Shown here piece after piece: positions 2,890-20,114 of a stretch of DNA of 24,000 nt (within the stretch, counting starts at the first letter, position 1; every line of letters starts with the position of its first letter). Origin of the DNA: Candidatus Heimdallarchaeota archaeon (lineage in GTDB: Archaea; Asgardarchaeota; Heimdallarchaeia; JABLTI01); NCBI GenBank assembly GCA_018238155.1, contig JABCTZ010000019.1, forward strand, positions 138,975 to 162,974, written 5' to 3'. The notes beneath the pieces were generated by a model. The model made no database searches, was not told the origin of the DNA, and saw only the letters and a program-made list of their open reading frames with translations. Both the position numbers and the translations under genes were made by a program.

Positions 2890-2890
2890 G

Positions 2891-4216: not shown

Positions 4217-4260
4217 AAGAGCAAAGCAAAAATATCATCATCTTTGCTCTTCATCTTTTT
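4217..4260 (+). terminator. Hairpin plus T-run downstream of pmbA
   Basis: Perfect 10-bp inverted repeat AAGAGCAAAG (4217-4226) / CTTTGCTCTT (4242-4251) with a 15-nt loop. It starts right after the TGA stop and is followed by TTTTT at 4256-4260 and a further T-run near 4275. Confidence 0.45.
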
Positions 4261-4683
4261 CTATTTATTAATCATTTTTTTCCAAGTCCATTAAAGAAAA
4301 CAGGAAATGGAAAATCATTTAATAAAATCCATTACTAGAAAAACTTAGGTTGCTCAATATGCTTTACCTCTCTATCCATCTAGAACATGCTTGACGCGTT
4401 TGTTTTTAACTCCTCCTAGATGACGTAAGAGTAGAATAGCAACCAGTTTATTGTTTTTGGAGGTTTCAAAAATTACTAATCAGTTGATAGTAGATTCCTT
4501 TGCGGAAAAGATAACTAATTCAGAACGTGCATTTGCTGAGTTTGGCATTAAAAAAAATGGCCAAGCTATTGAACACTCTAGAGAAATCTATGCACAAACT
4601 TGAACATGCAAAACAACTATTGGAAAATAAGGTATCTAATAATGGAAATTAGAAACGGGATAGTTGAAAACAAATATTCATCT

Positions 4684-5070
4684 CTATCTTTTTCTCTCTT
4701 TTCGCTTGTGACCTAGATTGTAAGGATCCATTGCACTTCTAGTACCCTTTATTTGATACATTCCCGTATCTTCAGGATAGATTTCTTGTTCAATTTTTAT
4801 TTCTCGTAATCTTTTTACTTCTTTTTCGAATTCCTCAGTTGAGATATCAAACCAAGCATATGTCCCTTCGACTTTGAATATTTTCTCAACTTCAATAGGA
4901 ACTATGAGTTTTTTCTTAAAACGCTTGATTACTAGAATCATAGCATATGATTTATATTTTTTAATAGTCTTGCCTAGCAGTTTTTCTATTCGAATAATTT
5001 TTCCAAGTTTTTTACTATCTTTATCGGCAGCGATTTTGGAGATTAACTGCTTCAAGCTTATTTTAGTCAT
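4684..5070 (-). CDS. Small PRC-barrel-domain protein with short helical segment and basic C-terminal tail
   Basis: 128-aa ORF. The pattern DKDSKKLGKIIRIE...YAMILV...KLIVPIEVEKIFKVEGTYAWFDIS matches the PRC-barrel signature (x-D-x-x-G-x-x-hG-x-h ... hhPh ... h-x-h). The C-terminus is GHKRKERKR. Confidence 0.55.
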   Translation of the reverse strand: MTKISLKQLISKIAADKDSKKLGKIIRIEKLLGKTIKKYKSYAMILVIKRFKKKLIVPIEVEKIFKVEGTYAWFDISTEEFEKEVKRLREIKIEQEIYPEDTGMYQIKGTRSAMDPYNLGHKRKERKR

Positions 5071-5145
5071 CTAGTAATTCCTTCAATAATTCCTCATCCA
5101 AGCATGATGTTAAGGATATAGATTCTTAGTTAATATTCTTTGCAT

Positions 5146-5173
5146 TATCTTTTGAGAAAAGATATCGAAAAAA
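5146..5173 (-). terminator. Oligo-T tract plus hairpin downstream of aor
   Basis: Read on the minus strand there is a T6 (complement of A6 at 5168-5173) about 43 nt after the aor stop. It is followed by an 8-bp hairpin TATCTTTT-GAG-AAAAGATA (5146-5164). Archaeal termination typically uses oligo-T. Confidence 0.3.
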
Positions 5174-5215
5174 TAGCTGAAACTTAATGATTACGTCTTA
5201 TGTTCATTTCTTTTT

Positions 5216-7048
5216 CTAAATTTCATTTAAATCTAATTCCTTCAATTTTTCATCTGAAGGTCTTCCTGTTTTCTGGTCATAATCTCGACATCTGTACCAA
5301 TCTTTCAATTGTTTTGCAAAATCTGGGACGTTACCTTCCGTTGGTCCTTCAAGACTCTGAAGCATAACTTTTGGTAGAAACTCAACAGCAGGTGTCCATC
5401 CTAGTTTTAGATTGATTAATCGTTTCAAAGCGAACAATCTGTCACCAAATAAAAGGAGGTCATCTAATGATACTTGTTTATCAAGGGCAATTGATAATTG
5501 TTTAGCAATAAGTGTTGCAGGCGGATTGAAGAATTGACACAAACCAACGGCATTGTAGAGTTGTCTATAGCTTTGTAATTTAGCTAATGGTTCTGCAATA
5601 TTGTTATCAAAACGACTGTTAGGCAGATCAACAACACCTATATCAGGAAAATTCATTCCTTGTTGAACCATGTAAGCATCACCATTCATATGACATGCTC
5701 CTCTTGGACTAGTAATATACATTACAGCCAAACCACTAAAAGCTCTTGGATCATGAGTTGGTGCTTCTAAACCTGCTACTTGTGGTGCTAATTCTAAATG
5801 ATCATATTTTTCAGCTAGGACTTTGCTTCCTTCTGCTAAAGTATTACCAATCTCTTCTCTCAAAGCAATAAGTTTGAGTAATTCTAATAATGAATCAATA
5901 TCTCCAAAGGAACAGCTAATGTTAGTTGGCAAATCTGATTTTGGGATAAACCCCTTTTCAATTAGATCAAATAGCACACCTATTGTTGCTCCTGCACTAA
6001 TAGTATCCATTCCAAAATCATTTGCTAGATAGTTGGCATAAGTGATTGCTTCCAAGTCAGTAATACATAAATTAGAACCAAAAGACGCTAGAGTTTCAAA
6101 TTCAGGACCATCTCTTTTCAATTTAAAACGTCCCTCTTTAATTTCAATTTCTCTGCCACAAGAAATCGGACAACGGTAGCAAGTAGATTTACCCGTTAGG
6201 ATTGTCTCAAACATAGTTGTGCCTGAGATATTTGTACCATTTTCCAGTGTTCCTTTCGACCAATTCTTAACAGGCATGTCACCATACAATTCAAGAGCAA
6301 TATCAACATAGCCTGCTGTACCAAATTGACTGAAAACTTCAGTTGAATAATCAGCTCGAATAATCTCATAAGCTGCTTTAGAAATGTGGTCATACTCATC
6401 CGGCAAATCAAAATCTCTATTGGAACCAAAAATTGCTATTGCCTTCAGATTTTTTGAACCCATAGTAGCTCCCATACCTGTTCGTCCGGCAGCTCGACCA
6501 CCTGCAGTCATAATATTCGCATATTTTACTAGATTTTCACCCGCGGGACCAATACAGGCAATTTCACTACGTTTATTATTCAAAGTGGATTTTAGCTTCT
6601 CTAATGTCTCATAAGTTCCAAGACCCCAGAGATTAGTTGCATCTCGAATGGTTATCTCATCGTCATTAATCTCGAGAAAAACCGGCTGATCAGCTTTGCC
6701 TTCAATAATAAGACCGTCATATTTAGCGAATTTTAAGTAAGGACCAATTTTTCCACCTATATTCGATTCACCCCAAAAACCGGTTAAAGGGGATCTAGCA
6801 CAAAATGTTGATCTAGGTGTAGAATAAGATGGCAAACCAGTAAGAACGCCAGTCATGAAGTAAAGATCGTTTTCAATTGCTAATGGATCTGAGAGTGAAT
6901 CTAAATCCTTTATTTTCGACCAATAATAGTATGCGGCTAATCCACTGCCACCAAGAAATTTTTTACCAATTTCTAAGTCAAGTTTCTTTGTTGATATCTC
7001 TTTAGATGAGAGATTCACTCTAAGAATTCTGCCACGAAATCCAGACAT
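5216..7048 (-). CDS. aor: Aldehyde:ferredoxin oxidoreductase (tungstopterin AOR family)
   Basis: 610 aa. The N-terminus is AOR-like (GRILRVNLSSKEI...GGSGLAAYYYW). The 4Fe-4S ligand motif CYRCPISC (C-x2-C-x3-C) is present, plus a distal Cys in GLCQFF. Length is typical of the family. Confidence 0.92.
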   Translation of the reverse strand: MSGFRGRILRVNLSSKEISTKKLDLEIGKKFLGGSGLAAYYYWSKIKDLDSLSDPLAIENDLYFMTGVLTGLPSYSTPRSTFCARSPLTGFWGESNIGGKIGPYLKFAKYDGLIIEGKADQPVFLEINDDEITIRDATNLWGLGTYETLEKLKSTLNNKRSEIACIGPAGENLVKYANIMTAGGRAAGRTGMGATMGSKNLKAIAIFGSNRDFDLPDEYDHISKAAYEIIRADYSTEVFSQFGTAGYVDIALELYGDMPVKNWSKGTLENGTNISGTTMFETILTGKSTCYRCPISCGREIEIKEGRFKLKRDGPEFETLASFGSNLCITDLEAITYANYLANDFGMDTISAGATIGVLFDLIEKGFIPKSDLPTNISCSFGDIDSLLELLKLIALREEIGNTLAEGSKVLAEKYDHLELAPQVAGLEAPTHDPRAFSGLAVMYITSPRGACHMNGDAYMVQQGMNFPDIGVVDLPNSRFDNNIAEPLAKLQSYRQLYNAVGLCQFFNPPATLIAKQLSIALDKQVSLDDLLLFGDRLFALKRLINLKLGWTPAVEFLPKVMLQSLEGPTEGNVPDFAKQLKDWYRCRDYDQKTGRPSDEKLKELDLNEI

Positions 7049-7096
7049 GTGTACACCTTTGCTTGATAATATTTGCCAATGAATATTAGTAATTGA

Positions 7097-7513
7097 TTAA
7101 AGGAATTTAGTGTCGATTTTTTGTGCTGTTTTAATTAACTCTTGAGCAGCTTTGACCGAACGCAAAACCTTCATCATATTTCCAATAAGATTGAATTTCT
7201 TACTCATAATTCCTTTAATTGGATCAATTTCTCCTTTGATTAATTTAATCCAATTGGAATAAATTCCAACATATTGGTAAGCAGTTTCAGGAAGATTGTC
7301 ACCTTCATTGAAATAAGCCACACTTCTACAAACACCATGATATAAATCAATATGAAGTACAACTTTGTTACTAAAAACCTCATCAGGTTTAACTACAAAA
7401 AGAAAATCGCCTTCCCAATTTTTAGCTGCTTCTTGCCAATCCTTGCCTTCTTCACCATTAAGTTTATCCTTAAACGCTTTTATCCATTCTTCGGATGGAA
7501 AAGTAATTGCCAT
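7097..7513 (-). CDS. SCP2 (sterol-carrier-protein-2-like) domain protein
   Basis: The ORF-track entry starts at a TTG (7603). ATG at 7513..7511 (MAITFPSEEWIKAF...) is the more likely start. The C-terminal pattern GEIDPIKGIMSKKFNLIGNMMKVLRSVKA matches the SCP2 motif (G-x-hD-x-x-x-A-h-x-x-G-K-h-x-h-x-G-x-h). Confidence 0.75.
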   Translation of the reverse strand: MAITFPSEEWIKAFKDKLNGEEGKDWQEAAKNWEGDFLFVVKPDEVFSNKVVLHIDLYHGVCRSVAYFNEGDNLPETAYQYVGIYSNWIKLIKGEIDPIKGIMSKKFNLIGNMMKVLRSVKAAQELIKTAQKIDTKFL

Positions 7514-7811
7514 TTGATATCTTATCTCCAATTTAAGTTTTGTAAATATTGACTCATCAATATTTAAATGTTCATTATGAATAGTATAGAAAAAGAAAGT
7601 CAAAGGATAATAGGCTAGATAGTTGGTTGCAACAAGCTTTTAGAAAATACGAAAATCAATTTGAGAAAGAATAATACTCAATAGAAGTTTTTAAAATCCT
7701 TAACAATTCAATTTTTGTTAGAAAGAGTTGTTTTAAGTGATGGGTGTAATTATTGTCAATCAAATATAAATTTGAGCAAGCAGGATCAGAATGAATGTTA
7801 GTAGATTGATT

Positions 7812-8786
7812 CTATTCAGATATTTTCTTCTTTTTGCTTAAGTGTTCTTTCAGGGATTTTTTTTCTAAAATAACTGTCACTACAATACCCACTGCAACAA
7901 AAGTCATGCCAATAAATGCAGACCAATGCGGAATTTCTATGAAGAAAAGCACAGCTAATAATGTTGCACCAAACATTTCACCTAAAGCAGTAACAGTAAT
8001 AACCGGTGCTCTAACAAACCCTAGACTATAATTGTATAAAGTGTGACCTAAACAAGATGGTCCAATAGCAAGTAGCAAAAAGAGCATGAAATGTTGCCAA
8101 CTAAGACCAGAAATGATTAATGGTCTTATTACAGGATTGGCAAGTATGTAAGCTAGAAGGAAAATTGTACAAATTCCATAAACAATTGTTGCATATGAGA
8201 AAATGTCTAATCTCTCTCTTTTCTTTCTCCCGATAACAAAATATATTGCTCCTGAAATTCCGCCAGCTAGTGCGAACAAATCTCCGTAAAAATTACCTAG
8301 CCCTTCTGTTAGAAGATCTGATAATCCTACAGTAATAGCTCCTATTACCGTCAGTGCAACAACAAGAGCTTGTTTCCAAGATACTTTATCTTTAAGAAAA
8401 ATCACCGATAAAAGAAGAGCAAATAAAGGCATTAAATACACAATTGTAATTGAACTTGCGACATTTGTCATTTGCAAAGAAAGGTTCCAAGTAGCAAAAT
8501 GAATTGCTAAAGCCAGTCCTGATAAAGTTAATAATGGCATATCTCTCTTTAACGCTACTTTTTTGAATTCTTTCAAATTTCTAGTAAAAACTGCACCCAG
8601 AAACATTCCCACGGTTGCAAAAAGCAAGCGCCAAAAAGCAATTACAGATGCATCTGCCGGAATAAGATTTTCATCTATTCTAATGATTTCTATACCCGCA
8701 TATCGAATAAGTATAGAAGCAAAAGAGGTCATAACCATTGCTAAAGCTATAAGAAAGTAAACATGTTTGGGGATTTGTTTCCTCAT
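7812..8786 (-). CDS. EamA/DMT-superfamily transporter (about 10 TM)
   Basis: Hydrophobic ORF with about ten predicted TM segments in two halves, typical of the EamA duplication. The ORF-track start (8855) is a TTG, and ATG at 8786..8784 (MRKQIPKHVYFLIAL...) is more likely. Confidence 0.8.
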   Translation of the reverse strand: MRKQIPKHVYFLIALAMVMTSFASILIRYAGIEIIRIDENLIPADASVIAFWRLLFATVGMFLGAVFTRNLKEFKKVALKRDMPLLTLSGLALAIHFATWNLSLQMTNVASSITIVYLMPLFALLLSVIFLKDKVSWKQALVVALTVIGAITVGLSDLLTEGLGNFYGDLFALAGGISGAIYFVIGRKKRERLDIFSYATIVYGICTIFLLAYILANPVIRPLIISGLSWQHFMLFLLLAIGPSCLGHTLYNYSLGFVRAPVITVTALGEMFGATLLAVLFFIEIPHWSAFIGMTFVAVGIVVTVILEKKSLKEHLSKKKKISE

Positions 8787-8913
8787 TGCTTCTTTCTGTA
8801 ATGGTTCTGATGATAACTCTCTATCTGGCTCGAGAAGTTCCTTTTGATCTAACAAAGTAATCTGTGAAATAGGCTCATTTACAATTAAATAACTTGTTAA
8901 TATTTTAGTATTT

Positions 8914-8946: not shown

Positions 8947-11900
8947 CTATTTCTCGGATAATTCTTTGAAAGATCCTGTCATATCTTTAACATGTTCATT
9001 AATGACTTCGGATAAATCGTTCGTTTTGTCAATTGACATGGTAGTTCTCTTAGCAAAACTGGAAATTTGTTTAAGCATTACTTCTTCTAAATCATCTACT
9101 GATTTGAGAAAAGCTTCAGCTATTTCCATATTACTTCTATTTGAAAGTTCAAACTGCTTTCGAGCAAAGAGTGTAGCTTCTCGTTTGACTTTCTGAAGCA
9201 CTCGATCAAAACCATCTAATAAATCAACAATTAATCGGTCTGTACTCAAACCAACTCTTTCACCCATTGCGTTTATCTCTACATCTAAATCTACTAAAAA
9301 TCTGTTGGATTTAGTTTCGCAAGCAGTAATTGTTTTCATCGATGCTTTCTCTATTTTTTCCATATCTTTCTTCAGATTCACATTGAGATTACTCATTGTT
9401 TTTCCATAAAAAGAAAGATGGTTTCGTCCTATTTGATGTAATTCATTTTTGTATTTCTCTATATTTGCTGCTTCTCTTTCTATACGAGTGATTACTTGCT
9501 CAGTTAATTTTTGGCGGATTCGTTCAAGGTTTTCAGTATATCTCTCTTCAATGCCTAATACTGCTTGCTCACCAATAACTGTTACTCTCTCTGTTCTTCT
9601 AGAAGCTTCTGCAGTAATATTACCTACCGTGCTAAATATTGCTCCTTCTATTCCAGCTGTTTTAGTTTCTAATTCTAAAATAGCTCTGTTAGTAATAGAT
9701 GAGGTTTGTTCTCGCAAATCACTAGTTAACTTTTCACAATGCTCGAAAATAATTTCTTTTGAATTACTCAAGATTTCTTGTTGTTTTGTTAAGTCTTCTT
9801 TCAAAGATTGTGTATAACGGTCTCTAAATTCATAGGCATTTCCTATTTGTTTTTCTTGTAACGCATCGATTTTCTTATCTAAGATTTTAAGTTGCTGTCT
9901 GTGCATTTTGTTAATTTCATTATACATATCAATGGATTCATCTTGTTGTTTTTCATTCAGTTCACCAAGTTCAATTTCTTGTTTACTGAGTTCAGCTGCA
10001 GCTTGTCTAAATATTCTGTCTGCACCAGAAGTAATATTAGATCGGATTGTTTGTGCAGTTGAATTAACGCCATTTGATAATTGGCTAATAGCTTTTTCAG
10101 TAAGGGCAGTAATAGTTGAACGAGAAGATTGCTCTTGATCTAATAATGAAGAAGCATCATTAGCAATTGTTTTTTCTACTTTTACGAAGCTTTCTTGCGT
10201 TTTAGAAATATATTTCTCTCGAGCACGTATGAAATTATCTTTAAGTGAAATACTGTCTTTGGTAGTTCGAGAACTTTGACGATTAAGCATGTTATCAATA
10301 GATTTGCTTAATTCCTTTCTAGTACGTTTGAAAGCTTCAATATCGTTAGAAAAGAATCGATTAAGATTATTGTCAGTCCTCTTATAGAATTGTTTATACT
10401 CCGTGCCGAGTTCTACTAGTAATTTAGAAACTGGAAACTTTGTTTCGTCAATTAATCTATCTTGTTCTTTCTTAAAGGTTACAAGTCTGTTGTTAATTGA
10501 TAAACTATCTTTCTTGAGAGTATTGGCAATTTCTTGAAGAGAGCGCCTTGTACTAGCACCTGTTTCAGCACCAAAATGTCTGAAATTTTTAGAAATTTGA
10601 GTGTAGGAATCGCGAATAAGTATTATTAATTCCTCTTTTGAAACTTGATTGTTGTTTTTTATTTGATCTACTAGCTTGTCCATTTTATTCTCTAATGCTT
10701 CGAGGTTTTTGTCAACATTTGAATCAATTCTATCTTGAATTGTTTTAGTGCTTTCACCTCTCCATCGTTCAAGTTTTTTAGTTAAGGAGGAAACTTCTTT
10801 TGAAGTATCCCTTAATTCTTTCTGATGTTTAGTTGAAAATTCTTTGTAAAGTGATTGGAAAGATCTATCTTGTTCTACTAACTTCTTTTCTAAATTATCG
10901 AAATTTGATGAAAAACCCTTATCAATTCGCTCTTTTAAGCGCTTGAGGTCCTTCTCAAAATTTTCTTCTTTCTTTTTAGAATCATTTTTGAATTGCTTGC
11001 TGATATCCTGCAATTCTACTTGCAATCGTCGGTCGAATCTAGTTAGAAAAGTAGTTTCATCTTTTATAATACGTTCATTTAATTTTTCAAGGTTTATCAT
11101 GAGTTCCTTTACAGGTTCAGTTAAGGTCATATTGATAAAATTGACCAGGTTTTGTACACTTGTACCGTTATTATCTACTGTATTTAGAAAGTCAGCTTCA
11201 AGTTTTGCGATAATATCACTAAGATCCATTTGATATTCTGCAACAGCTCCATTTAGAATGATGAGGAATTGTTCTATCATTTCGTTAAGAACATCTCGAG
11301 ACCGCTCTGAAGTATTATGAATAAATTTGTTCTTTTCATTAGTTATTTTTTCAATAGAATTAACAAATTTATCTTCAATAGCATTCATCTCATCGTTTGC
11401 AGAAGAAGTGTTTTTGAGAGATTGTTCAATTAAAATCTCTATTTTATTATCAAAATCATTTGCTAGCTCTTCCGCAGCTTTGCTAAAAATCGAAAAGTGA
11501 TTTTCCATTAAACCGGAAAGTGATTGTTTCTGTTGTTCTATAACCACCTTTTGTTCATCCAAACTTGCAATAGTAATTTTAGAAAAACGCGGTTGGATGG
11601 AATCAACTGTAGTCACCAGTGGCCGTTTTTGTTCTGTTAATACACGAACCATTTCTGTTTGGAAGTTTAGCGATGATTCTTCAATTGCTTCTGTTAAAGA
11701 GCTAATTGCTTCATCAATTTGTTCGTTAATTGGTCGAGTAACTTTCTCTAAATCATCTATACCAGAATCGAGTACGGTAAAAATAATATCCTCAAATTCA
11801 TCCTTAGATGTATTGAAAGCTTCTAAGACTTCATCGAAGGCAGAATTGGCTTTAGTTTCAAAATCAATAATATCACTTACTCGTGCATCAACAGTAGCTT

Positions 11901-12537
11901 CAAGTTGCTTCTCTGCTCTAGCATAAGTAGCAATTAACGTTTTAGAGAAATTTTGCGCTAAAGGGATTAATCCTCGCTTAATATTATCCGTTGTTTCCTT
12001 TGTTCGGATTGAAGATTCTTCAAGAAATTCATTAGATGTCTTTGTTATTCGGTTTAAATCTTTCAAATCCATTTCAATGGATGCAAGGATTCCACTGAAA
12101 GAAGCATCCATAGCCATTTCGAGGTCCTTAATATCTTCCTCGGAACGTTCAGTTCGTTTCTCACGTTCATCTGTACTGGCTTCTCTTACATTCTTTATTG
12201 CTCCCTCTGTGAAATTATGAACAACTTCTGTAGTAGCTTCCAATTCACTCTTGCGTGCTTCAAGAGAACGAGTTAAAGTACTCAAAACATTGATGAATTT
12301 CATAACAGGGAATACAGCAATATAGCGACGATCATCATCATTTCCCACAGGGACAGTGAACCCTCGTTCATGCATAGCCTCTAAAATCGCGTTAATTCTT
12401 CCCTTAGAAACTCTACTTCGTTTTGAGATTTCCATAGGGGTTAATGCACCATCATTTACCAAAGCTTGGAAAACTCGTTTCTCATTTGCAGATAAACGAG
12501 GTAGTAAACCGAGAGCCTTTGCTTCTTTTTTAGACAT
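8947..12537 (-). CDS. Giant (1196 aa) protein: N-terminal TrmB-type winged-helix DNA-binding domain plus about 1100 aa of segmented alpha-helical / coiled-coil sequence
   Basis: Uninterrupted ORF with ATG at 12537 and GGTGA 8-12 nt upstream. Residues ~10-95 (LGLLPRLSANEKRVFQALVNDGALTPMEISKRSRVSKGRINAILEAMHERGFTVPVG..RRYIAVFP) match the TrmB N-terminal wHTH pattern. The rest is E/K/S/N/T/I/L-rich and shows no TM segment, Walker A motif or Cys cluster. Gly/Pro helix breakers occur roughly every 40-70 residues. Confidence 0.85.
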   Translation of the reverse strand: MSKKEAKALGLLPRLSANEKRVFQALVNDGALTPMEISKRSRVSKGRINAILEAMHERGFTVPVGNDDDRRYIAVFPVMKFINVLSTLTRSLEARKSELEATTEVVHNFTEGAIKNVREASTDEREKRTERSEEDIKDLEMAMDASFSGILASIEMDLKDLNRITKTSNEFLEESSIRTKETTDNIKRGLIPLAQNFSKTLIATYARAEKQLEATVDARVSDIIDFETKANSAFDEVLEAFNTSKDEFEDIIFTVLDSGIDDLEKVTRPINEQIDEAISSLTEAIEESSLNFQTEMVRVLTEQKRPLVTTVDSIQPRFSKITIASLDEQKVVIEQQKQSLSGLMENHFSIFSKAAEELANDFDNKIEILIEQSLKNTSSANDEMNAIEDKFVNSIEKITNEKNKFIHNTSERSRDVLNEMIEQFLIILNGAVAEYQMDLSDIIAKLEADFLNTVDNNGTSVQNLVNFINMTLTEPVKELMINLEKLNERIIKDETTFLTRFDRRLQVELQDISKQFKNDSKKKEENFEKDLKRLKERIDKGFSSNFDNLEKKLVEQDRSFQSLYKEFSTKHQKELRDTSKEVSSLTKKLERWRGESTKTIQDRIDSNVDKNLEALENKMDKLVDQIKNNNQVSKEELIILIRDSYTQISKNFRHFGAETGASTRRSLQEIANTLKKDSLSINNRLVTFKKEQDRLIDETKFPVSKLLVELGTEYKQFYKRTDNNLNRFFSNDIEAFKRTRKELSKSIDNMLNRQSSRTTKDSISLKDNFIRAREKYISKTQESFVKVEKTIANDASSLLDQEQSSRSTITALTEKAISQLSNGVNSTAQTIRSNITSGADRIFRQAAAELSKQEIELGELNEKQQDESIDMYNEINKMHRQQLKILDKKIDALQEKQIGNAYEFRDRYTQSLKEDLTKQQEILSNSKEIIFEHCEKLTSDLREQTSSITNRAILELETKTAGIEGAIFSTVGNITAEASRRTERVTVIGEQAVLGIEERYTENLERIRQKLTEQVITRIEREAANIEKYKNELHQIGRNHLSFYGKTMSNLNVNLKKDMEKIEKASMKTITACETKSNRFLVDLDVEINAMGERVGLSTDRLIVDLLDGFDRVLQKVKREATLFARKQFELSNRSNMEIAEAFLKSVDDLEEVMLKQISSFAKRTTMSIDKTNDLSEVINEHVKDMTGSFKELSEK

Positions 12538-12726: not shown

Positions 12727-12837
12727 GGGCCGGTAGATCAACCTGGTAGATCGTCTGATTCGCAATTGACTAAAAGGTTGCAAACCTTTCAACAAAAATT
12801 CAGAAGGCTACGGATTCAAATTCCGTCCGGTCCACCA
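12727..12837 (+). tRNA. tRNA-Ala (anticodon CGC) with a ~34-nt intron in the anticodon loop and an encoded 3' CCA
   Basis: Hand fold. The acceptor GGGCCGG/CCGGTCC carries the Ala identity pair G3:U70. U8, A14, G18G19 and A21 are present. The D-stem is GATC/GATC and the anticodon stem is TCTGA (12754-58)/TCAGA (12800-04). The loop starts TTCGCA and is then interrupted by ~34 nt (about 12765-12798) containing the hairpin AAAGGTT-GCA-AACCTTT. The T-arm is ACGGA-TTCAAAT-TCCGT, the discriminator is A, and CCA sits at 12835-12837. Exact splice junctions cannot be fixed by eye. Confidence 0.85.
12812..12835 (+). repeat. Left copy of a direct repeat (T-arm and acceptor 3' strand of tRNA-Ala)
   Basis: GGATTCAAATTCCGTCCGGTCCAC matches 20087-20110 at 20 of 24 positions in the same orientation (hand alignment). 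Confidence 0.6.
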
Positions 12838-12906: not shown

Positions 12907-14601
12907 TTAGTCCTTAACATCCTTCTTACTAAGGTATTGTTCTTTCAATTTATTGCAGAACTCTGTTGTTGCTATCATATCCTTGCCAATCTTATTATCC
13001 TCAATTTCAAGAATTCTACTATTTGGTATTACTGAGAGTAAATCGTGTGTCACCGCAAGAACTGAAGCATTAGTACCCATAACATACTCTACAAAAAGGC
13101 TAATTATTTTGCGTTTATTTAATTCATCCAAGTTGGCTGTAGGTTCATCTATAAGCATTATTCTCGGTGATAGTACTAATCCCAGAAGCATTGTTGCCCT
13201 TTTCTTTTCTCCTTGTGAATAGTTTTCTACTAACTGATTTTTAATATCATCCAACGAGAGATATTGCAATAAATGATTTGTATCATAAAAACTCTGTTTA
13301 CTTTTTTTATTAACTGTAAAATAATTTATATTTTCAATTAAGGTCATAGAGGGATAGAGATTGATATATTGTGAGGAGTAGTAGACTGAGTGGGATCGCA
13401 GTTTATCAATTGCTGTAAAATTAGATGAGAGGATTTCTTCACCTAGAATTCTTATTGAACCGATAAAATCCCTATCAATCCCTGATACAAGGTTCAGTAA
13501 TGTTGTTTTTCCTGTGCCTGATGGACCAATTAGAAACACTAATTCACCAGGATAAATTTGTAGATTTAAGTTTTGTAAGATAAGTTCTTTTCTGGGTGAA
13601 TAATAGAATTTTGTCAAATCTGTACATTCTAAAATACTTGTCTCTTTTTTGTCTCGTTTTCTTGGTTGATATTGTGGGATTTTCACATGTTGGGAAATTT
13701 CTTTTCCGGCAAAGCTTTCTGGTGATTCGGGGTTCTCAAGATAGATTTTCTTTGATTCGTGATTTACAATAAATTTGACTTTCTTGTTTAATGATAGAAG
13801 TTCTTTGATTTGGTTTGGTAGGAATAAGTAAGAATAGCTATCAATATGCGAAACAAAAGTCTCAGAAGCAACAGGTTTATCCTTATCTTCACTTTCCTCT
13901 GGAAAATTTTCCTGAGTATAAATAGCTCCTAATCTACCGTTGAAAATAAGAAAAGATTCAGAGACCACAGAAAAGTAGTTAGGATCATGACTAACAACAA
14001 CAATGGTTGTTTTTTCCTCTTGATTTATTTTTTTAAGTAGATCCAAAATGATTTTTGTGTTCTTTTTATCAAGTTGACCTGTAGGTTCATCAGCTAATAG
14101 TATTGATGGAGAGTTGGTGAGGGAAATTGCTAAACTAACTCGCATACTTTCTCCCATTGAAAGCAGTTTTGCCTTTCTAAGAGCGAGATGTTTGATCTCC
14201 ATTTGCTCTAGTATTTCATCAACTTGTTTTTTTGATTCTTCTAAGCTCTTACCTAAAAGCCTAGTTGGTACCATTAAATTCCGTTCAACAGTAAGCTCTG
14301 GAAAGAGATTATAATGTGGTATTTGATTAAGGAATCCAATATTCTGCAAACGGAAATCATATAATTCTTTCTTTGACATTAAATCAACGTCATGCGATAA
14401 AACATTCACTTTACCACTAGTTGGTTGTTCTAAACCACTGATTATTCTCATGAGAGTAGATTTCCCAGCACCACTGGGACCAATTATTGAAACAAAACTA
14501 CCACTCTTGATATCTAAATCACAACCACCTAAAGCTACAATGGAACGACCTAGTTCAGGCTTAGGATAGATTTTTGTTATTGCCTCAAGATTAATCATCA
14601 T
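12907..14601 (-). CDS. ABC transporter ATPase with two fused nucleotide-binding domains (MacB/LolD/FtsE-like NBDs)
   Basis: 564 aa. NBD1 has Walker A GPSGAGKST, Q-loop LNQ, signature LSMGESMRV, Walker B ILLADEPTGQLD and H-loop VSHD. NBD2 has Walker A GPSGTGKTT, signature YSQGEKKRA, Walker B MLIDEPTANLD and H-loop VTHD. Signatures of the S-x-G-E-x-x-R type resemble the LSGGEQQR of the MacB/LolD family. The start ATG (14601) overlaps the permease stop (ATGA), with GGAGGG upstream. Confidence 0.9.
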   Translation of the reverse strand: MMINLEAITKIYPKPELGRSIVALGGCDLDIKSGSFVSIIGPSGAGKSTLMRIISGLEQPTSGKVNVLSHDVDLMSKKELYDFRLQNIGFLNQIPHYNLFPELTVERNLMVPTRLLGKSLEESKKQVDEILEQMEIKHLALRKAKLLSMGESMRVSLAISLTNSPSILLADEPTGQLDKKNTKIILDLLKKINQEEKTTIVVVSHDPNYFSVVSESFLIFNGRLGAIYTQENFPEESEDKDKPVASETFVSHIDSYSYLFLPNQIKELLSLNKKVKFIVNHESKKIYLENPESPESFAGKEISQHVKIPQYQPRKRDKKETSILECTDLTKFYYSPRKELILQNLNLQIYPGELVFLIGPSGTGKTTLLNLVSGIDRDFIGSIRILGEEILSSNFTAIDKLRSHSVYYSSQYINLYPSMTLIENINYFTVNKKSKQSFYDTNHLLQYLSLDDIKNQLVENYSQGEKKRATMLLGLVLSPRIMLIDEPTANLDELNKRKIISLFVEYVMGTNASVLAVTHDLLSVIPNSRILEIEDNKIGKDMIATTEFCNKLKEQYLSKKDVKD

Positions 14602-17534
14602 GTACCCTCCATAATTGATGGTTGAAACTCAAAGAATTTCTTCTGATAAAAATGTCTGATGAGGATATCTGCTCCTAATAGACTCAATAATATGATTACC
14701 AAATAAAGTGAAAACTGGGCATAAAAAGGAACGTTCAGAATCCAATTCTCTGCTTTAATTAGAACTCTTAGAAGAAAAACAAGAGACCCAATACCTGCGC
14801 CAATGCTTATTGGGAGAATTAGAAGTAAAATAAGCAAGTACTCAACAAGGAAATTTCTTGAAATAGTCTTAATAGAAAATCCTCGATAACGTAAGACAAG
14901 TATCTTCTCTCGTCGAGCATTGATCATATCTTGTACTAAAACAATACCAATAATGAAAAATGAAATACCTCCAAAAATGCCTGTTACAATTGATAATGCT
15001 ATGATACTAGTAGCAAAAGTTGGCAAGTAATCAGGATAAACATCCATCCAAGTTGTATGATCAATTGAATAAGGTATTGATTGTAATGCTAGTAAAAGTG
15101 CATTCATTTCTGATTGTTTTTTGACTTTAATAATAACAGCCTCGTCTATTAAAATAACTGAAATATCTTCATTATGCTGAAGAACTGTTTGGAAAGCTGA
15201 TTCAGTCATAACTAGAAAAGGAATAGAATTTTTTTCAAAATGAAATGTTGAAAGTTGGTAGTCATTTAATAGTATTGGAAAGATACTATACATATCAAAA
15301 ACTTGGAATTCCTTTTCAACAAGCTGCTCATCATCAGCTGTATTATTGTTAAAACCTAACATTATACTATTGTTTTCTGAATCAGAAACAATCCTCCTAT
15401 TAATAAATAGGTCTTCTGACTGTGTGAGAATGGAATTCGGAGCATCACTGAATCCCTCTAAGTCATCTATAGTAATTCCCAAATTATAATCTCTGGAATA
15501 GGATACTGTTGATCCAAAGGTTGGTGAGATAACCAATACTTGGTAATCAACGTCAAATATCGATAACTGGACAAGAGAATAATTTGCAGCTGAATGGACA
15601 GAAGGAAATAATGAAATATCTGAAAGTAAAGACGCAGTGTTGGACGGATTTTCTAAATGAATAGAAACGTCAGAACCGAGATCAAATTTTGCAGAATAGG
15701 TAGCATGTTGTGATATATAAAGTGGAATTAAAAAAGCTTGAATAAAGATTAGAAATGAAAGAGCAATGAAAAAGGATTGTTTTTTGTGATGTTGAAAAGC
15801 AAGAGAAAGATTGTGCAAGACTATCGAGAATTTTTTTGACGCTTTTTTCCAGAGGGATTGCGATAACTTTACTAACTGTTTAAGCAACGAATTTATTAAA
15901 ATAAAAAGCAAACAGATAATTGTTATTGAAATGGAAATATACAAAAAGATATCAAAAATAAAGACTATCTCAGAATCTAAGACAGTCTGTAAATTTAATA
16001 AATTTTTAATAATCAATAATGCTGTCATAGCTAAAAGTGAAAACAAACTAGTTAATCCGATGACCAGTATTTGAGTTTTGGTTGAACCACTAGTGGTAGC
16101 TGTGAAAGAGCTAAGACGATTTGGGTAGAATTTTTCAACTTTTCTGAGAAGAATTACTAAATTGACAAATGAAAAGACAAACAAGAAAATAAAGAACAAT
16201 AATGAGGGGACAAATGCCATACCAAAAGAGATTAGGTTTAGTGTAAGAGAACTTGCCTTTGTTATACCTGAGATAATTCCAAGGTTCAAATATGTTAATG
16301 GAACAGCTAAAATAAGAGCTAAAAAACAAGAAGAACTAATTTCTATAAAACGAGAAATGGTGAATATCTTGAGGATAGTACTACGAGGAAAACCACGAGT
16401 TATGAAATTAGCATAAATGTCTGATAGCTTGAGAGTATTAGATGAAAAACTAAGCCAAAGAATAAACAAAGAAAATACTAATGATGCAAACCCAATGGCA
16501 AAAAGTCGAAACCATTGTTGTTGAATATCCCTTTTAAAGTGAATCATGAAGTCTGCTAATTCAAGAGTGACACTGGCGGAAAGATCATGATAATATGAAA
16601 AACCAGATAAATCAGGTAAATTCTCAGCTGAATTATAAACTTCTTTCAAATCAGCAATTTTTAATGAAGAAAAATCATAGAGGAATTGTATATGGATTTC
16701 TATTTCCGATGATAATAGTTTTGGGAAGGCATGAAAGAAATCAGTTAAGTAATTAATAGAAAGTAATAGCAAAGGTTGATCAGATATAAAGCTTGTATAA
16801 TAATCTAGAATTTTAAAAAGAAAGGGATTTTCCTCTTCAATGATACTTTCAAGCAGGAAATCGTTTGTATTGAAAATATTGGAAATACTAACATTAAATG
16901 GATCAATAACGAATGTGTTATTTACAATTAATTCAGATTCTTCTTGAACAAAAGGTAAAATTGAAATGGTATCACCAATTGAATAGGTGTATTCAAGAGT
17001 AGTCTGTTCTGGCAAATCATTTTTTTGTACTAATATACATTCATCAAAAGAAATAGGAATTTCATTGATTATCTCAAAATATTTAGAGATTTGATTTAAG
17101 GATTCATTCTGTATAAATAAAATATTTGAAGAAGCGATTTCCCCCTCTGAGTAATATTGTAATTGAGCATCACAATTGGATATATAACCATCAATATATT
17201 TGTCTAAATTTGAGTTAAAAATAATGTCATCAATATCTCTATTAATTTCTGCAATAAGGTTTGAGGGAATATTTGATGTATTAGTAAGATAAGAATTAGA
17301 GAAGAAATAACCTATAGAATGTTGTTCATCTCCTTCTAAAGGATGTAAAGATTGGTATTCCAATAAAAAAGAAGACTGTACACTTAAACCAATGAAAAGT
17401 ATTGGGAAAAATAAAAGAAATGGAAGCATAAAACTTAGAATTGAGAATAGTAAGTGTTTTTTATCACTGAATGTAAAAGAAAATGCACAATACAGTAATG
17501 ATTTAATTGAGAAAGTATCTTTTTGAATAACCAT
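14598..17534 (-). CDS. FtsX/MacB-type ABC permease with two FtsX modules, about 10 TM and two large extracytoplasmic domains
   Basis: 978 aa. By hydrophobicity the layout is TM1, ECD1 (~285 aa), TM2-4, TM5-6, TM7, ECD2 (~210 aa), TM8-10. Both modules carry the FtsX-type cytoplasmic motif after the post-ECD helix (ANFITRGFPRSTILKIF and LVLRYRGFSIKTISRNF). Both ECDs carry N-x-S/T sequons. Confidence 0.85.
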   Translation of the reverse strand: MVIQKDTFSIKSLLYCAFSFTFSDKKHLLFSILSFMLPFLLFFPILFIGLSVQSSFLLEYQSLHPLEGDEQHSIGYFFSNSYLTNTSNIPSNLIAEINRDIDDIIFNSNLDKYIDGYISNCDAQLQYYSEGEIASSNILFIQNESLNQISKYFEIINEIPISFDECILVQKNDLPEQTTLEYTYSIGDTISILPFVQEESELIVNNTFVIDPFNVSISNIFNTNDFLLESIIEEENPFLFKILDYYTSFISDQPLLLLSINYLTDFFHAFPKLLSSEIEIHIQFLYDFSSLKIADLKEVYNSAENLPDLSGFSYYHDLSASVTLELADFMIHFKRDIQQQWFRLFAIGFASLVFSLFILWLSFSSNTLKLSDIYANFITRGFPRSTILKIFTISRFIEISSSCFLALILAVPLTYLNLGIISGITKASSLTLNLISFGMAFVPSLLFFIFLFVFSFVNLVILLRKVEKFYPNRLSSFTATTSGSTKTQILVIGLTSLFSLLAMTALLIIKNLLNLQTVLDSEIVFIFDIFLYISISITIICLLFILINSLLKQLVKLSQSLWKKASKKFSIVLHNLSLAFQHHKKQSFFIALSFLIFIQAFLIPLYISQHATYSAKFDLGSDVSIHLENPSNTASLLSDISLFPSVHSAANYSLVQLSIFDVDYQVLVISPTFGSTVSYSRDYNLGITIDDLEGFSDAPNSILTQSEDLFINRRIVSDSENNSIMLGFNNNTADDEQLVEKEFQVFDMYSIFPILLNDYQLSTFHFEKNSIPFLVMTESAFQTVLQHNEDISVILIDEAVIIKVKKQSEMNALLLALQSIPYSIDHTTWMDVYPDYLPTFATSIIALSIVTGIFGGISFFIIGIVLVQDMINARREKILVLRYRGFSIKTISRNFLVEYLLILLLILPISIGAGIGSLVFLLRVLIKAENWILNVPFYAQFSLYLVIILLSLLGADILIRHFYQKKFFEFQPSIMEGT

Positions 17535-17536
17535 TT

Positions 17537-19090
17537 TTAATTCTCTTCTCTGCTTTTTTGTTTTTTCTTATAGCGGTGAAAGTAATAGTAACCAACTCCT
17601 CCAAAAATAATAGGAATAATGATTGAACTGGTTATTATTAGCCAATAATAGGGTGATTTGATTGCTCTAATAAAATAAGGTTTACTTATGTCATTAGCAT
17701 ATATACCATATATACCAAGTGAGGAGATTATGTTATTATCTCCTCCAAAAGAATGATATTGAGAATGATCATTGTATGCATACCCTAGTAAATATGAATC
17801 AAGATAGGAGTTAGATGTACAGTTATAGATAAAACGCGAATGGAAAGGATTTAAATTACTTTCCAGATTAAGATTTATGTAATTCCAATCTCCATTAATC
17901 GTCAATGAGTAATTGATTAAAGCTATTTGTCTGAACTCTGAATGTGCAGTAGATTTTCTATAAATTATTGAAAGTTGCGAATTGTGAATATATGCATCAA
18001 AAATCTCAAGTCCTTTATATGTATAAAATCTAACATTGGGGTCTATTCTTGTATTCAATGTTACATATGCGCTTTCGGATACACTTGTTAAGTTAAAGGT
18101 TGAAGAGGTACTGTTGTATTCAAATAGAGCAAATTCTGTTGGAGAACTTGTTGAAGCAGATAAGGTACAGAGTAAGTAGATGTTGTCTGTTAACTGATTA
18201 TACAACAATCTTCCAACTCTTATGCTACCTTTTATATTATAACCTGGATTGGAGAATGAGCAATTAGAATAATTAGTTAGAGAATGAGTAAGGAAATCGT
18301 ATTCATATAAACGATAGTTATCTTTTCCTGTATCAAAATAGAGAAAATAGGCACTGTTATTATTTGGATTATAACAAGAGGAAATATCCTCTAACATACC
18401 ATATTCAATATATTTATTAGTTGTTTTTTTAGTTTGATTGAGATCAAATACTATGATATCTGTCTTATTCCCTAAAATATTATAGCTAGTTAGTAAGTAA
18501 ATTGCTTGATTATTATCTAAAATATTTACTCCTAAAATACTGGGTGTTGACCGATAGTCAATGAGATAGTTAGTTCCATCAATAAGAAAAATCTTTTGAC
18601 TTTCATTTGAAGTTGAATTATAGTAATAACACCAAAACTCTCGATTATATTCTTGCGTAGTCTCATTTTTCACAGAGAGAGCATAAGCAAAATAAAATGA
18701 TTTCTCCATAGTTGAGGTAAAAAAGTATTGTCTTTCAGGATAAAACCCCTTTTCTTCCAGTAATTCTTTTTCTACTACTTCTCCATCTTCTATAAAAAAA
18801 TGGCTAAGTTTTGTACTATCTTTGTGGTCAGAAATACCAATAAAGTGAAGCTGGTTATCAATTAAATAGCTTCCACATAATCCTAAATCATCACCAGTTA
18901 CTATTAGATTTGAAACACTTAGAAACTCTTTTCCTTGAGCAAAACTTATCATAAATGGAGAAATAAATAAATAAGAAATCAAAAAAATATTGAATAAATG
19001 CTTCTTCCCTAACATATGTAAACATCCTTTTAACCTGTTCTTAACATAATTTTGGTAGCTTTTCTCGTTACAGTTTTTTACTATTTTCAT
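17537..19090 (-). CDS. Type-I membrane-anchored surface protein: signal peptide, beta-rich Tyr/Asn-rich ectodomain, C-terminal TM and basic tail
   Basis: 517-aa ORF. A signal-like segment MLGKKHLFNIFLISYLFISPFMISFAQG begins at Met26 (alternative ATG at 19015). I counted about a dozen N-x-S/T sequons by eye. The C-terminal anchor is WLIITSSIIIPIIFGGVGYYYF followed by HRYKKKQKSREEN. The stop lies 2 nt before the permease ATG (TAA-AA-ATG). Confidence 0.72.
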   Translation of the reverse strand: MKIVKNCNEKSYQNYVKNRLKGCLHMLGKKHLFNIFLISYLFISPFMISFAQGKEFLSVSNLIVTGDDLGLCGSYLIDNQLHFIGISDHKDSTKLSHFFIEDGEVVEKELLEEKGFYPERQYFFTSTMEKSFYFAYALSVKNETTQEYNREFWCYYYNSTSNESQKIFLIDGTNYLIDYRSTPSILGVNILDNNQAIYLLTSYNILGNKTDIIVFDLNQTKKTTNKYIEYGMLEDISSCYNPNNNSAYFLYFDTGKDNYRLYEYDFLTHSLTNYSNCSFSNPGYNIKGSIRVGRLLYNQLTDNIYLLCTLSASTSSPTEFALFEYNSTSSTFNLTSVSESAYVTLNTRIDPNVRFYTYKGLEIFDAYIHNSQLSIIYRKSTAHSEFRQIALINYSLTINGDWNYINLNLESNLNPFHSRFIYNCTSNSYLDSYLLGYAYNDHSQYHSFGGDNNIISSLGIYGIYANDISKPYFIRAIKSPYYWLIITSSIIIPIIFGGVGYYYFHRYKKKQKSREEN

Positions 19091-19135
19091 TTGTTTTTTA
19101 TAAAAAAGAAAAAAAATAATTGGAAAGAGTATTAT

Positions 19136-19792
19136 TTAGTCGTAGTATGGTGCTGGGAAGCTTATGTAATTGATTACATCTTCTACTTGCCAATCATCAC
19201 CATTGGAGTAATAATCATCCATATAATAATACATGGGAGTCCAATTACTTAATACATAACCTGCAGACCACCAAGTAAAATCATCTCGATCACGTCCAAA
19301 AACCTTGGCTCCTTCACGTTCAAAAATCATATTACCTCGGTTTTTAATTTGAAAGACACACATGCGATAATCATCTTGTGAACTATCGCCAAAGTTTGTA
19401 TTTAATGTAGAATCACGTTTTACACCACCATCATATGAATCGATAATGTAGTTAAAGTCATCATAATCACCATTATCATTAGAATCTGAAACACAAATAA
19501 TTATAAAGTCCATATTATTAAGATAAGGACAAACTACTCCATTTGATCCTCCACGAGATTCATAGATATAAAAGTCATTTCGATTTGTTGTTTCATATAA
19601 AAAGTAATGAATGGCTTTACCACCTGTTGATGGCACATCAACTAAAAGAATTAATGTTTCATCATAGTATACACTAGATCCATTGAAATACAGATAACAA
19701 TTATCGTATATATATGAATTACTTAGATTTGAATTCACAAACATTAATCCTAGAAAACTTATTAGTAATAAATTCAAGTATTTTTGTTTCAA
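19136..19792 (-). CDS. Secreted acidic Asp/Asn/Tyr-rich protein (218 aa), first gene of the operon
   Basis: TTG start at 19792 with GGAGAG 6 nt upstream. The next in-frame Met would delete the signal peptide. The signal-like N-terminus is KQKYLNLLLISFLGLMFVNSNLSNS. Acidic loops SDSNDNGDYDD and DDYYSNGDDW resemble D-x-D/N-x-D/N-G calcium-binding loops. Confidence 0.65.
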   Translation of the reverse strand: MKQKYLNLLLISFLGLMFVNSNLSNSYIYDNCYLYFNGSSVYYDETLILLVDVPSTGGKAIHYFLYETTNRNDFYIYESRGGSNGVVCPYLNNMDFIIICVSDSNDNGDYDDFNYIIDSYDGGVKRDSTLNTNFGDSSQDDYRMCVFQIKNRGNMIFEREGAKVFGRDRDDFTWWSAGYVLSNWTPMYYYMDDYYSNGDDWQVEDVINYISFPAPYYD

Positions 19793-20054
19793 TTTATACT
19801 CTCCAGTAAGTTATTCCTTTTCGAGAAACAACTACTTGAAAAAAAAAAGCAGTTCAAACTGATATTTAAACATTTCTCAGTTTTGAATTATTGTCGATTT
19901 AGTTATTTTACTCTTGTAAATATTCTTATTCAAAATGAAAACAATCAATGTTATTTATTATTGGGTCTATACAATTCTGCAATTCAGAAATGAATTGATT
20001 ATCATAAGTGAACACTAAATTTCTATTACTCGTGTTTTTTCTATCAATTTCATT

Positions 20055-20082
20055 AAAATAAAAAAAAACTCTTCAAATGAAG
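20055..20082 (-). terminator. Hairpin plus T9 tract downstream of the PfkB kinase gene
   Basis: On the minus strand the hairpin CTTCA-TT-TGAAG (20071-20082) is followed by T9 (complement of A9 at 20060-20068) and TTTT. It begins about 33 nt after the stop at 20115-20117. Confidence 0.4.
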
Positions 20083-20084
20083 TC

Positions 20085-20110
20085 GTGGATACACATTCCA
20101 TCTGGTCCAC
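20085..20110 (+). repeat. tRNA-Ala 3'-fragment-like sequence (right copy of the direct repeat; T-arm-like hairpin plus acceptor 3' strand, no 5' half)
   Basis: GTGGA-TACACAT-TCCAT-CTGGTCC-A-C aligns to the tRNA-Ala T-arm and acceptor strand. Relative to the tRNA, the second T-stem pair changes C:G to T:A (compensatory), and the T corresponding to U70 is kept. No complementary 5' acceptor strand or D-arm lies upstream. Confidence 0.55.
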
Positions 20111-20114
20111 ATCT

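Follow-up and report, generated by a model that had tools for sequence, protein, structure and literature searches.

Four genes stand in line on the minus strand of a 24,000-nucleotide (nt) stretch of Candidatus Heimdallarchaeota DNA, which we analysed as a whole and refer to as the window. Two of them look like the permease and the ATPase of an ATP-binding cassette (ABC) system, the other two encode predicted surface proteins, and the question is whether the latter are parts of the ABC machine, its cargo, or neighbours by chance. An earlier note, made from the sequence of the window, had described the four genes as one operon for a fused FtsX/MacB-type (type VII) ABC machine with two surface partners. 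The answer we favour, with belief and doubt about evenly balanced, is that the cluster encodes a type VII ABC complex in which the 517-residue surface protein, p517, is a dedicated membrane-tethered extracytoplasmic subunit. This answer relies on the FtsX and ABC assignment of the permease and the ATPase, on the linkage between p517 and the permease across related loci, and on paralogous systems in which an equivalent module is fused to the permease. All four open reading frames (ORFs) that the earlier note had placed on the minus strand are present in the ORF list:

19136..19792, minus strand: p218 gene, 218 amino acids (aa), TTG start; ORF list
17537..19090, minus strand: p517 gene, 517 aa; ORF list
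14598..17534, minus strand: permease gene, 978 aa; ORF list
12907..14601, minus strand: ATPase gene, 564 aa; ORF list

Because homologues of each product, with 22–92% identity, occur in the identical gene order in further archaeal assemblies, these ORFs are real genes. The p517/permease junction reads GAATTAAAAATGG (TAA stop, AA, ATG start, i.e. a 2-nt gap) and the permease/ATPase junction reads ACATGATGA (ATGA, a 4-nt overlap), both as described earlier, whereas the 45-nt gap proposed between p218 and p517 hangs on an unsupported upstream ATG. The majority of the 11 p517 homologues from related loci, which together with p517 itself form our 12-member family alignment, begin at or close to Met26 (nt 19015). 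Met26 is thus probably the true start, with the first 25 annotated residues left untranslated, and the p218/p517 spacer would then measure 120 nt instead of 45.

Hydropathy predicts ten transmembrane (TM) segments in the permease (residues 26–59, 340–365, 395–425, 429–467, 487–515, 521–558, 585–609, 839–873, 890–928 and 931–963), arranged as 4+2+4 in a single polypeptide so that two FtsX modules are linked by TM5–6. Two outside domains are delimited by the same analysis:

16518..17357, minus strand: outside domain 1, about 280 aa (residues about 60–339), between TM1 and TM2; hydropathy
15021..15707, minus strand: outside domain 2, about 229 aa (residues about 610–838), between TM7 and TM8; hydropathy

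No mutual similarity between the two domains was detected by the internal duplication test. The same comparison of the permease halves gave only a short in-register match at RGF (residues 380 and 884, E 4e-4); RGF is the hallmark motif that follows the first helix of each three-TM bundle, and R-x-G is present in the C-terminal module. The permease's own match to the Pfam family FtsX (PF02687) covers residues 853–954 and, at 21.4 bits (E 2.7e-4), falls short of the gathering score of 25.5, and its N-module has no direct Pfam FtsX match. The earlier note had expected FtsX twice in the permease and ABC_tran twice in the ATPase: the second expectation was borne out, but the window permease itself matches FtsX only once and below threshold. 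The evidence for two modules comes from the relatives. More specifically, (i) 7/7 members of the permease subfamily match PF02687, with a best E of 5.8e-7; (ii) distant full-length relatives, retrieved by a family profile search, match FtsX at 31–93 bits, above the gathering threshold in some, several of them having two FtsX stretches and several having the best stretch in the N-module, and N-module matches occurring in P0153 and P0140; (iii) the family profile aligns over 797 columns (hhalign probability 97.8%) with a 1006-aa paralogue from Ca. Heimdallarchaeum aukensis, in which Pfam places the best FtsX stretch in the N-module (residues 387–495) and whose second outside domain, which aligns with outside domain 2 of the permease, matches MacB_PCD at 24.3 bits, below the gathering score of 27; (iv) the profile aligns full-length (hhalign probability 100%) with the permease of locus L014. 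We therefore accept the permease, as judged from its sequence and those of its relatives, as a very divergent 10-TM double-FtsX protein of the FtsX/MacB superfamily, which upholds the assignment in the earlier note.

The permease has no NCBIfam match, and its subfamily is tiny and divergent: a word-indexed search returned 7 proteins, and an exhaustive profile search of 1.84 billion representatives returned 24 at E<=1e-3 and just 8 at E<=1e-30. The closest relatives come from metagenome-assembled genomes (MAGs) labelled Candidatus Heimdallarchaeota, Heimdallarchaeaceae or Asgard group, plus one labelled Bathyarchaeia; all named sources but this one are Heimdallarchaeia.

In the ATPase, Pfam finds ABC_tran twice within one chain (E 1e-58), which bears out the tandem arrangement of nucleotide-binding domains (NBDs) proposed for it. 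Its top curated matches in NCBIfam are LolD (TIGR02211, 304 bits), FtsE (277 bits), DevA, a bacteriocin-exporter ATPase and the MacB NBD, scores that add up two NBDs, so that equivalog cut-offs are inapplicable. By these matches, the NBDs belong to the LolD/FtsE/MacB clade, the clade that partners FtsX-type permeases. The chain divides as follows:

13927..14601, minus strand: NBD1 (residues 1–225), with Walker A GPSGAGKS, signature LSMGE, Walker B ILLADE and H-loop SHD
13627..13926, minus strand: inter-NBD linker (residues 226–325), with a conserved motif of about 45 aa, SHIDSYSYLFLPNQIKELLSL.KKVKF
12907..13626, minus strand: NBD2 (residues 326–564), with Walker A GPSGTGKT, signature YSQGE, Walker B IMLIDE and H-loop THD

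The Walker A motif, the catalytic Glu of Walker B and the His of the H-loop are kept in both NBDs across the whole subfamily, and both catalytic sites are apparently intact. The linker motif (…IDS.SYLFLPNQIKELLSL.KKVKF…, residues 246–290, 13732–13866, minus strand) is shared by distant Heimdall paralogues and by tandem ATPases of Anaerolineales. It looks like an AbrB/SpoVT swapped hairpin; the motif has no Pfam match, and its top PDB match, the SpoVT N-domain, is non-significant (E 0.24).

From its sequence, p517 is predicted to be a membrane protein of type I: behind the signal peptide come an Asn-, Tyr- and Ser-rich ectodomain of some 430 aa, a C-terminal TM segment (residues 481–502) and a short basic tail. 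It has no match in Pfam, including the Pfam repeat families, in NCBIfam, or in PDB sequence and profile searches. Conservation within the family is highest in the juxtamembrane and TM segment (0.45; ectodomain 0.38, signal peptide 0.20), and the conserved segment reads …PYFIRAIKSTYYWLIIxSSIIIPLTLGGVGYYYI…. The heavy decoration with N-x-S/T sequons claimed for this protein stands in part: sequons are enriched (12 vs 8.0 +/- 2.5 in shuffled sequence) and several are conserved, among them NCSFS and EYNSTSSTFNLTS, but the enrichment is modest. The AlphaFold2 model of p517 contains six complete and one partial four-strand units between residues 71 and 434. When this model was used in a Foldseek search of the PDB, the 50 matches listed were overwhelmingly, and the top ones all, beta-propellers (sialidases, DPP-IV propellers, paraoxonase, BtuG), with E down to 4e-7 and a TM-score of only about 0.3. 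The ectodomain is thus probably all-beta, a propeller of 6–7 blades, as suggested by this low-confidence model. The signal peptide (…FMISFAQGKEF) has no lipobox cysteine. We also considered an archaeosortase/exosortase signal of the PGF-CTERM type and rejected it: a TM segment and a basic tail are present, but p517 has neither an NCBIfam or Pfam match nor a PGF-like motif.

The earlier note had made its reading depend on whether the upstream genes travel with the transporter in other genomes. Gene orders in the related loci are listed below, with the identity of the permease or of the ATPase to that of the window:

L010: permease identity 85%; p218-p517-permease-ATPase
L008: permease identity 79%; p218-p517-(remnant)-p517-permease-ATPase-p218'
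L001: permease identity 79%; p517-p517-(remnant)-p218-p517-permease-ATPase-p218'
L002-4, L012, L020: permease identity 69%; p517-p517-permease-ATPase
L013, L005-7: permease identity 54%; p218-p517-permease-ATPase
L015 (Heimdallarchaeaceae): ATPase identity 58%; p218-p517-permease-ATPase
L014: ATPase identity 42%; p517-permease-ATPase

Directly upstream of the permease, every locus whose sequence extends that far has a p517-family gene, in 1–3 copies (distinct loci counted: window, L010, L008, L001, L002, L013, L015 and L014). The adjacency persists while permease identity falls from 85% to roughly 26%, a value taken from the hhalign comparison with L014, and spans at least three genomic neighbourhoods. 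Flanking genes vary: nitroreductase, ZIP and MFS genes in some loci, a ribosomal protein operon in L015, and topoisomerase, PfkB and TrmB genes in the window and L010. Since the flanking genes differ among lineages, the p517–permease linkage is not inherited synteny. The co-occurrence of p218 is less complete (5/7 lineages: L008, L010, L015, L013 and L001). Altogether, the linkage that the earlier note had wanted checked was found for both upstream genes, throughout for p517 and in most lineages for p218. One related locus, L010/L011 (isolate CSMAG_2352), shows full synteny with the window, having a topoisomerase, a PfkB kinase, the four genes, a tRNA and a giant TrmB-type helix-turn-helix coiled-coil protein.

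Two further observations concern these loci. Chimeric remnants lie between p517 paralogues in L008 (11455–12502) and in L001 (7151–8201); they consist of the first 180–200 permease residues (72–74% identical) joined to p218-like fragments, and their sequences point to recent tandem duplication and recombination within the cluster. The contig DATKZI010000058.1 (L004/L012) is labelled Candidatus Bathyarchaeia, yet bears a Heimdall-type cluster with 69% permease identity, and its neighbouring genes (nitroreductase, ZIP, MFS, methyltransferase) are common to the Heimdall loci L001 and L013; the label may be wrong.

A search with the ATPase gave more than 1000 matches at E<=1e-30. Among the best 120 of these, most are tandem-NBD proteins of 540–600 aa with about 30–36% identity, and nearly all named sources are Heimdallarchaeia; two closed genomes, those of Ca. 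H. aukensis and Ca. H. endolithica, are among the sources. A large FtsX permease lies upstream of the ATPase in the 3 loci sampled. In Heimdall permeases of 1426–1446 aa, a signal peptide leads into an ectodomain of about 400 aa, after which come a single TM segment, a basic stretch and finally the 10-TM body; each of these permeases adjoins a downstream tandem-NBD ATPase, and p218 is absent. In a whole-library profile search, the start of the permease (profile positions 10–15) aligns to residues 460–480, approximately, of these long paralogues, just past the TM segment. The p517/permease gene boundary thus falls where the fused forms have a cytoplasmic loop, and p517 and permease, when concatenated, reproduce the architecture and topology of the long paralogues. 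Direct comparison of p517 with the fused N-terminal modules, signal peptides included, gives a probability of 95% (E 2.4e-8), and a reversed control gives E 0.33; homology between them is suggested, not conclusively, by these figures. Because the Heimdall paralogues fuse an equivalent ectodomain–TM module to the N-terminus of the permease, we read p517 as a tethered subunit and not as a chance neighbour.

In Ca. Heimdallarchaeum aukensis (CP084166), two such units stand in tandem (L016, 1905–11788): a 1426-aa permease with a 298-aa ABC protein, and the 1006-aa permease mentioned above with a 595-aa tandem ABC protein. The N-terminus of the 1006-aa protein matches about 30 residues around positions 453–482 of the 1426-aa protein, and the shorter copy seems to be a duplicate stripped of its ectodomain module. 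Outside the archaea, a counterpart is found in Anaerolineales MAGs, where the genes for two large FtsX permeases precede that for a 552-aa tandem-NBD ATPase with the same linker motif; in L021 and L022 (869–13285), an adjoining 1184-aa protein combines a BPD_transp_1 permease domain with a beta-propeller of the pyrroloquinoline quinone (PQQ) type.

The second surface protein, p218, has an N-terminal signal peptide (…LGLMFVNSNLSNS) without a lipobox cysteine and an acidic body whose Asp/Asn/Tyr-rich composition (D 11.5%, N 9.6%, Y 11.5%) is as the earlier note had described it. Conserved blocks are LILLVDVPSTGGKA, SDSNxNGxWDDF, FGDS and VEDxLxYxxFPxPY, and the SDSNxNG loop, as read from the sequence, would be compatible with a calcium site of the DxDxDG type. 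The protein has no Pfam or NCBIfam match, and no PDB match when the family profile is used. FGDS prompted us to consider a TesA-like SGNH hydrolase, which was rejected since there is no family match, the motif lies mid-protein and there is no conserved C-terminal His; a class III (pilin-like) signal peptide was ruled out from the sequence. Two non-coding regions flank the p218 gene:

19016..19135, minus strand: p218/p517 spacer, with an oligo-T tract (T8CT6) followed by a TTTATAAAA TATA-like box
19793..20114, minus strand: AT-rich region upstream of p218, with a TTTAAATA box about 70 nt ahead of the TTG start

An oligo-T tract is found 3' of the p218 stop in all five lineages that have p218 (read in the window, L010, L008, L015 and L013). 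The spacer would fit an archaeal terminator or attenuator with a promoter behind it, and the upstream region presumably holds the promoter of the cluster; the promoter-proximal part of the cluster (about 16500–20000) has a G+C content of 0.27–0.30, lower than the window mean of 32–33%. The single transcript proposed earlier therefore holds for p517, permease and ATPase but probably not for p218, which is set apart by the oligo-T tract after its stop and, in the window, by the TATA-like box: tight coupling is probably confined to the three downstream genes, with p218 on a separate or attenuated transcript.

How might such a complex work? One 10-TM double-FtsX permease and one tandem-NBD ATPase would form a 1:1 asymmetric equivalent of the usual 2+2 assembly. 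The C-terminal TM segment of p517 would pack against the permease next to TM1, placing the ectodomain beside or on the two outside domains. In the lineages that have it, p218 would be an accessory partner, secreted and positioned like TesA on YbbAP. By mechanotransmission, the two NBDs would set the outside domains in motion as they bind and hydrolyse ATP, and this motion would act on the surface propeller or through it; the likeliest task would be to pull a hydrophobic or lipid-linked molecule from the outer leaflet and hand it to a surface partner.

Several observations weigh against the subunit reading or thin its support. The AlphaFold2 model of the permease, built from a 7-sequence alignment, is unusable (pLDDT, the predicted local distance difference test, 39) and too poor for a fold assignment of outside domain 1, and the permease matches no PDB chain in sequence and profile searches that would cover the chains of YbbP and BceB. 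The hhalign comparison of the family profile with E. coli YbbP yields a probability of 0.06% (E 0.74), which leaves topology alone as the ground of that analogy. Both NBD signatures, LSMGE and YSQGE, deviate from LSGGQ, and the paralogues carry LS[GA]GE. The p517 model is weak (mean pLDDT 50, with values of 60–84 largely confined to residues 70–340), and when the ectodomains alone are compared, the match between p517 and the fused modules is marginal (probability 16%, E 1.6e-3), though in register. The p218 gene is missing from two lineages (L002-4 and L014) and probably transcribed separately. That p517 and p218 physically associate with the permease is inferred here, and mechanotransmission, the nature of the substrate, calcium binding and the role of p218 and p517 as clients are likewise put forward conditionally. 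Finally, 1–3 divergent p517 paralogues per single transporter fit an interchangeable cargo equally well.

This last point leads to the main rival, namely that p517 is not a part of the machine but its cargo: the conserved TM segment would be recognised, p517 would be pulled from the membrane as in LolCDE and released or built into a surface layer, and p218 would serve as carrier or co-assembler. The presence of one to three divergent paralogues beside one transporter speaks for cargo, the TM and juxtamembrane segment is the best-conserved part of p517, as a recognition signal would be, the NBDs score highest against LolD, and the duplication remnants among the paralogues suggest a fast-evolving array of surface proteins. 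However, the equivalent module is covalently fused to the permease in the paralogous systems, where release would need proteolysis; p517 and p218 have neither a lipobox cysteine nor a recognisable C-terminal sorting signal; and the distribution of the family is too narrow for a core surface-layer system. We regard this rival as rather unlikely, while taking it seriously.

A resistance function of the BceAB or MacB kind, in which the complex would sense or remove an envelope-targeting peptide, an intermediate of a cycle like that of lipid II, or a toxin, with p517 as binding or decoy receptor, appears distinctly improbable. The permease shares the 10-TM topology of BceB, and a narrow, patchy distribution with many paralogues per lineage is typical of defence and resistance genes; the cluster also lies next to a tRNA whose 3' end is repeated on the far side. 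On the other hand, neither histidine kinase nor response regulator domains were found in the scanned window genes and related loci, the permease has two large outside domains where BceB has one, PADLOC matches are those of a generic ABC-ATPase only, and nothing in the data indicates a particular toxin. An anti-phage defence role was rejected on the same PADLOC result. That the cluster encodes an ordinary small-molecule exporter with p517 and p218 as functionally unrelated neighbours, a view to which a possible separate transcript of p218 would lend itself, is strongly disfavoured and hardly credible, because p517 stays adjacent to ever more divergent permeases in changing neighbourhoods, the junctions are tightly coupled and fused paralogues exist.

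The tRNA and its repeat, which the earlier note had taken as the bounds of an island, are the following:

12727..12834, plus strand: tRNA-Ala(CGC) with a 34-nt intron after the anticodon loop (Rfam tRNA, 53.5 bits), convergent with the ATPase gene
20095..20110, plus strand: imperfect direct copy of the tRNA 3' end (12820–12835), 14/16 bases, or 20/24 when extended

The tRNA gene was missed by ARAGORN and found by Rfam, and its anticodon and G3:U70 pair were read from the alignment. The copy of its 3' end, such as occurred 0 times in 100 shuffles, looks like one half of an att-site pair around the cluster. Thus, one tRNA-Ala and a 16-nt copy of its 3' end do bracket the cluster, but there is no integrase and the copy was not found in the syntenic locus L010, so that the tRNA-bounded mobile island is a weak lead. 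The orthologous tRNA of L010 (14005–14078) occupies the same position and is intron-less; L013 has a different tRNA, on the opposite side of the cluster.

Beyond the tRNA, the window encodes a 1196-aa protein (8947–12537, minus strand) whose N-terminal winged helix of the TrmB/MarR type gives way to an apparent coiled coil of more than 1100 residues; it has weak Apolipoprotein-like matches, is 89% conserved in L010 and has a size unusual among TrmB-family regulators. The other genes on that side (1447–8855) are housekeeping genes: a TldD/PmbA pair (1447–4216), an aldehyde:ferredoxin oxidoreductase (5216–7048), an SCP2-like protein and an EamA transporter. On the other side of the cluster lie the PfkB kinase and a type IA topoisomerase.

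What would the complex mean for its hosts? Heimdallarchaeia are usually placed as the archaea closest to eukaryotes. To our knowledge, type VII ABC systems (MacB, LolCDE, FtsEX, BceAB, YbbAP) are known only from bacteria, where their targets are peptidoglycan, outer-membrane traffic and antibiotics, targets that archaea lack. Heimdallarchaeia hold a large uncharacterised radiation of type VII motors marked by full 1:1 asymmetry, a tandem ATPase with a conserved inter-NBD domain, and fused or tethered ectodomains. If the partnership between p517 and the permease is true, it offers a concrete, testable way to study how the cell surface of Asgard archaea is built or operated, and a natural split/fused pair for studying the coupling of FtsX motors to outside partners. 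A bolder idea, which we consider a long shot, is that Heimdallarchaeia evolved ATP-driven surface actuators of their own, in which an asymmetric motor would be hard-wired, by fusion or by a tethering TM segment, to a propeller-type receptor, ATP hydrolysis directly moving or remodelling an exposed glycoprotein. Such actuators would serve adhesion, surface-layer dynamics or cell–cell contact, and the paralogues would be different heads on a common engine.

Among characterised systems, the closest analogue is YbbAP-TesA by architecture and LolD and FtsE by NBD sequence. YbbAP-TesA is a type VII ABC transporter–lipid hydrolase complex (PDB 9GE6-9GE8), and E. coli YbbP has 10 TM segments, outside domains between TM1–2 and TM7–8, and a TM5–6 linker (PMC12646458). 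The window system resembles it in its single-chain 10-TM permease with both the TM1–2 and TM7–8 outside domains and in the small secreted protein encoded alongside. The two differ in that (i) YbbA is a homodimer, whereas the NBDs here form one tandem chain; (ii) p218 has no match to the SGNH-hydrolase or any other family; (iii) an extra TM-anchored, probably propeller-shaped partner is found here and none in YbbAP; (iv) the host is an archaeon without outer membrane or periplasm. Membership of the permease in the YbbP family was rejected since the profile comparison is non-significant; more generally, the sequence comparisons support membership in the FtsX superfamily, and do not support membership in the YbbP, BceB or LolCE families. 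LolCDE has in common with the window system NBDs of the LolD clade, an asymmetric pair of different FtsX modules and, under our proposal, the extraction of a membrane-anchored molecule from the outer leaflet. In LolCDE, by contrast, the FtsX modules are two separate 4-TM proteins, LolC and LolE, and the ATPase is a homodimer of LolD; its substrates are lipoproteins with a lipobox, which p517 and p218 lack, and no LolA- or LolB-like carrier is found here.

The BceAB-BceS system of Firmicutes, devoted to bacitracin sensing and resistance, likewise uses a 10-TM double-FtsX permease. The BceAB permease works with its membrane-embedded partner BceS through TM contacts; this partner is a histidine kinase, whereas p517 is an outside-facing ectodomain protein. 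In addition, BceA is a homodimer, and BceB is a 10-TM double-FtsX permease with a single large outside domain (PMC12646458), in contrast to the two of the window permease. FtsEX (with EnvC, PcsB or RipC) and MacAB-TolC are alike in that an FtsX-fold permease uses its outside domains to act on a dedicated extracytoplasmic partner. The N-terminal TM helix of MacA sits beside MacB. These systems differ by their homodimeric 4-TM permeases and single-NBD subunits, by partners that are coiled-coil activators or adaptor/duct proteins, and by peptidoglycan or outer-membrane roles that archaea lack.

The earlier note had contrasted the fused design with the usual assembly, but the design is not unusual: 10-TM double-FtsX permeases are known (YbbP, BceB), and tandem-NBD partners are abundant in Heimdallarchaeia and occur in Anaerolineales. 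Its statement that no characterised archaeal system is known with this composition does agree with what we found, as PDB sequence searches, Pfam, NCBIfam, PADLOC and the literature gave no matching characterised system; the literature search retrieved nothing relevant on Heimdallarchaeia or Asgard together with FtsX and, for archaeal type VII ABC work, bacterial studies only. The core of the earlier reading thereby stood up to the refuting conditions that it had set. The window system has its true nearest relatives in the uncharacterised tandem-NBD/FtsX systems of Heimdallarchaeia and Anaerolineales, with which it shares the tandem-NBD ATPase, the inter-NBD motif and large FtsX permeases directly upstream. 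The Anaerolineales loci differ in carrying two separate large FtsX permeases, and the Heimdall paralogues in fusing the ectodomain–TM module into a chain of 1426–1446 aa, without p218, whereas the window encodes p517 and p218 separately. Compared with the characterised systems, then, the motor fold and topology are already known, and what is new is a tandem ATPase, a dedicated surface ectodomain, tethered or fused, and an archaeal setting.

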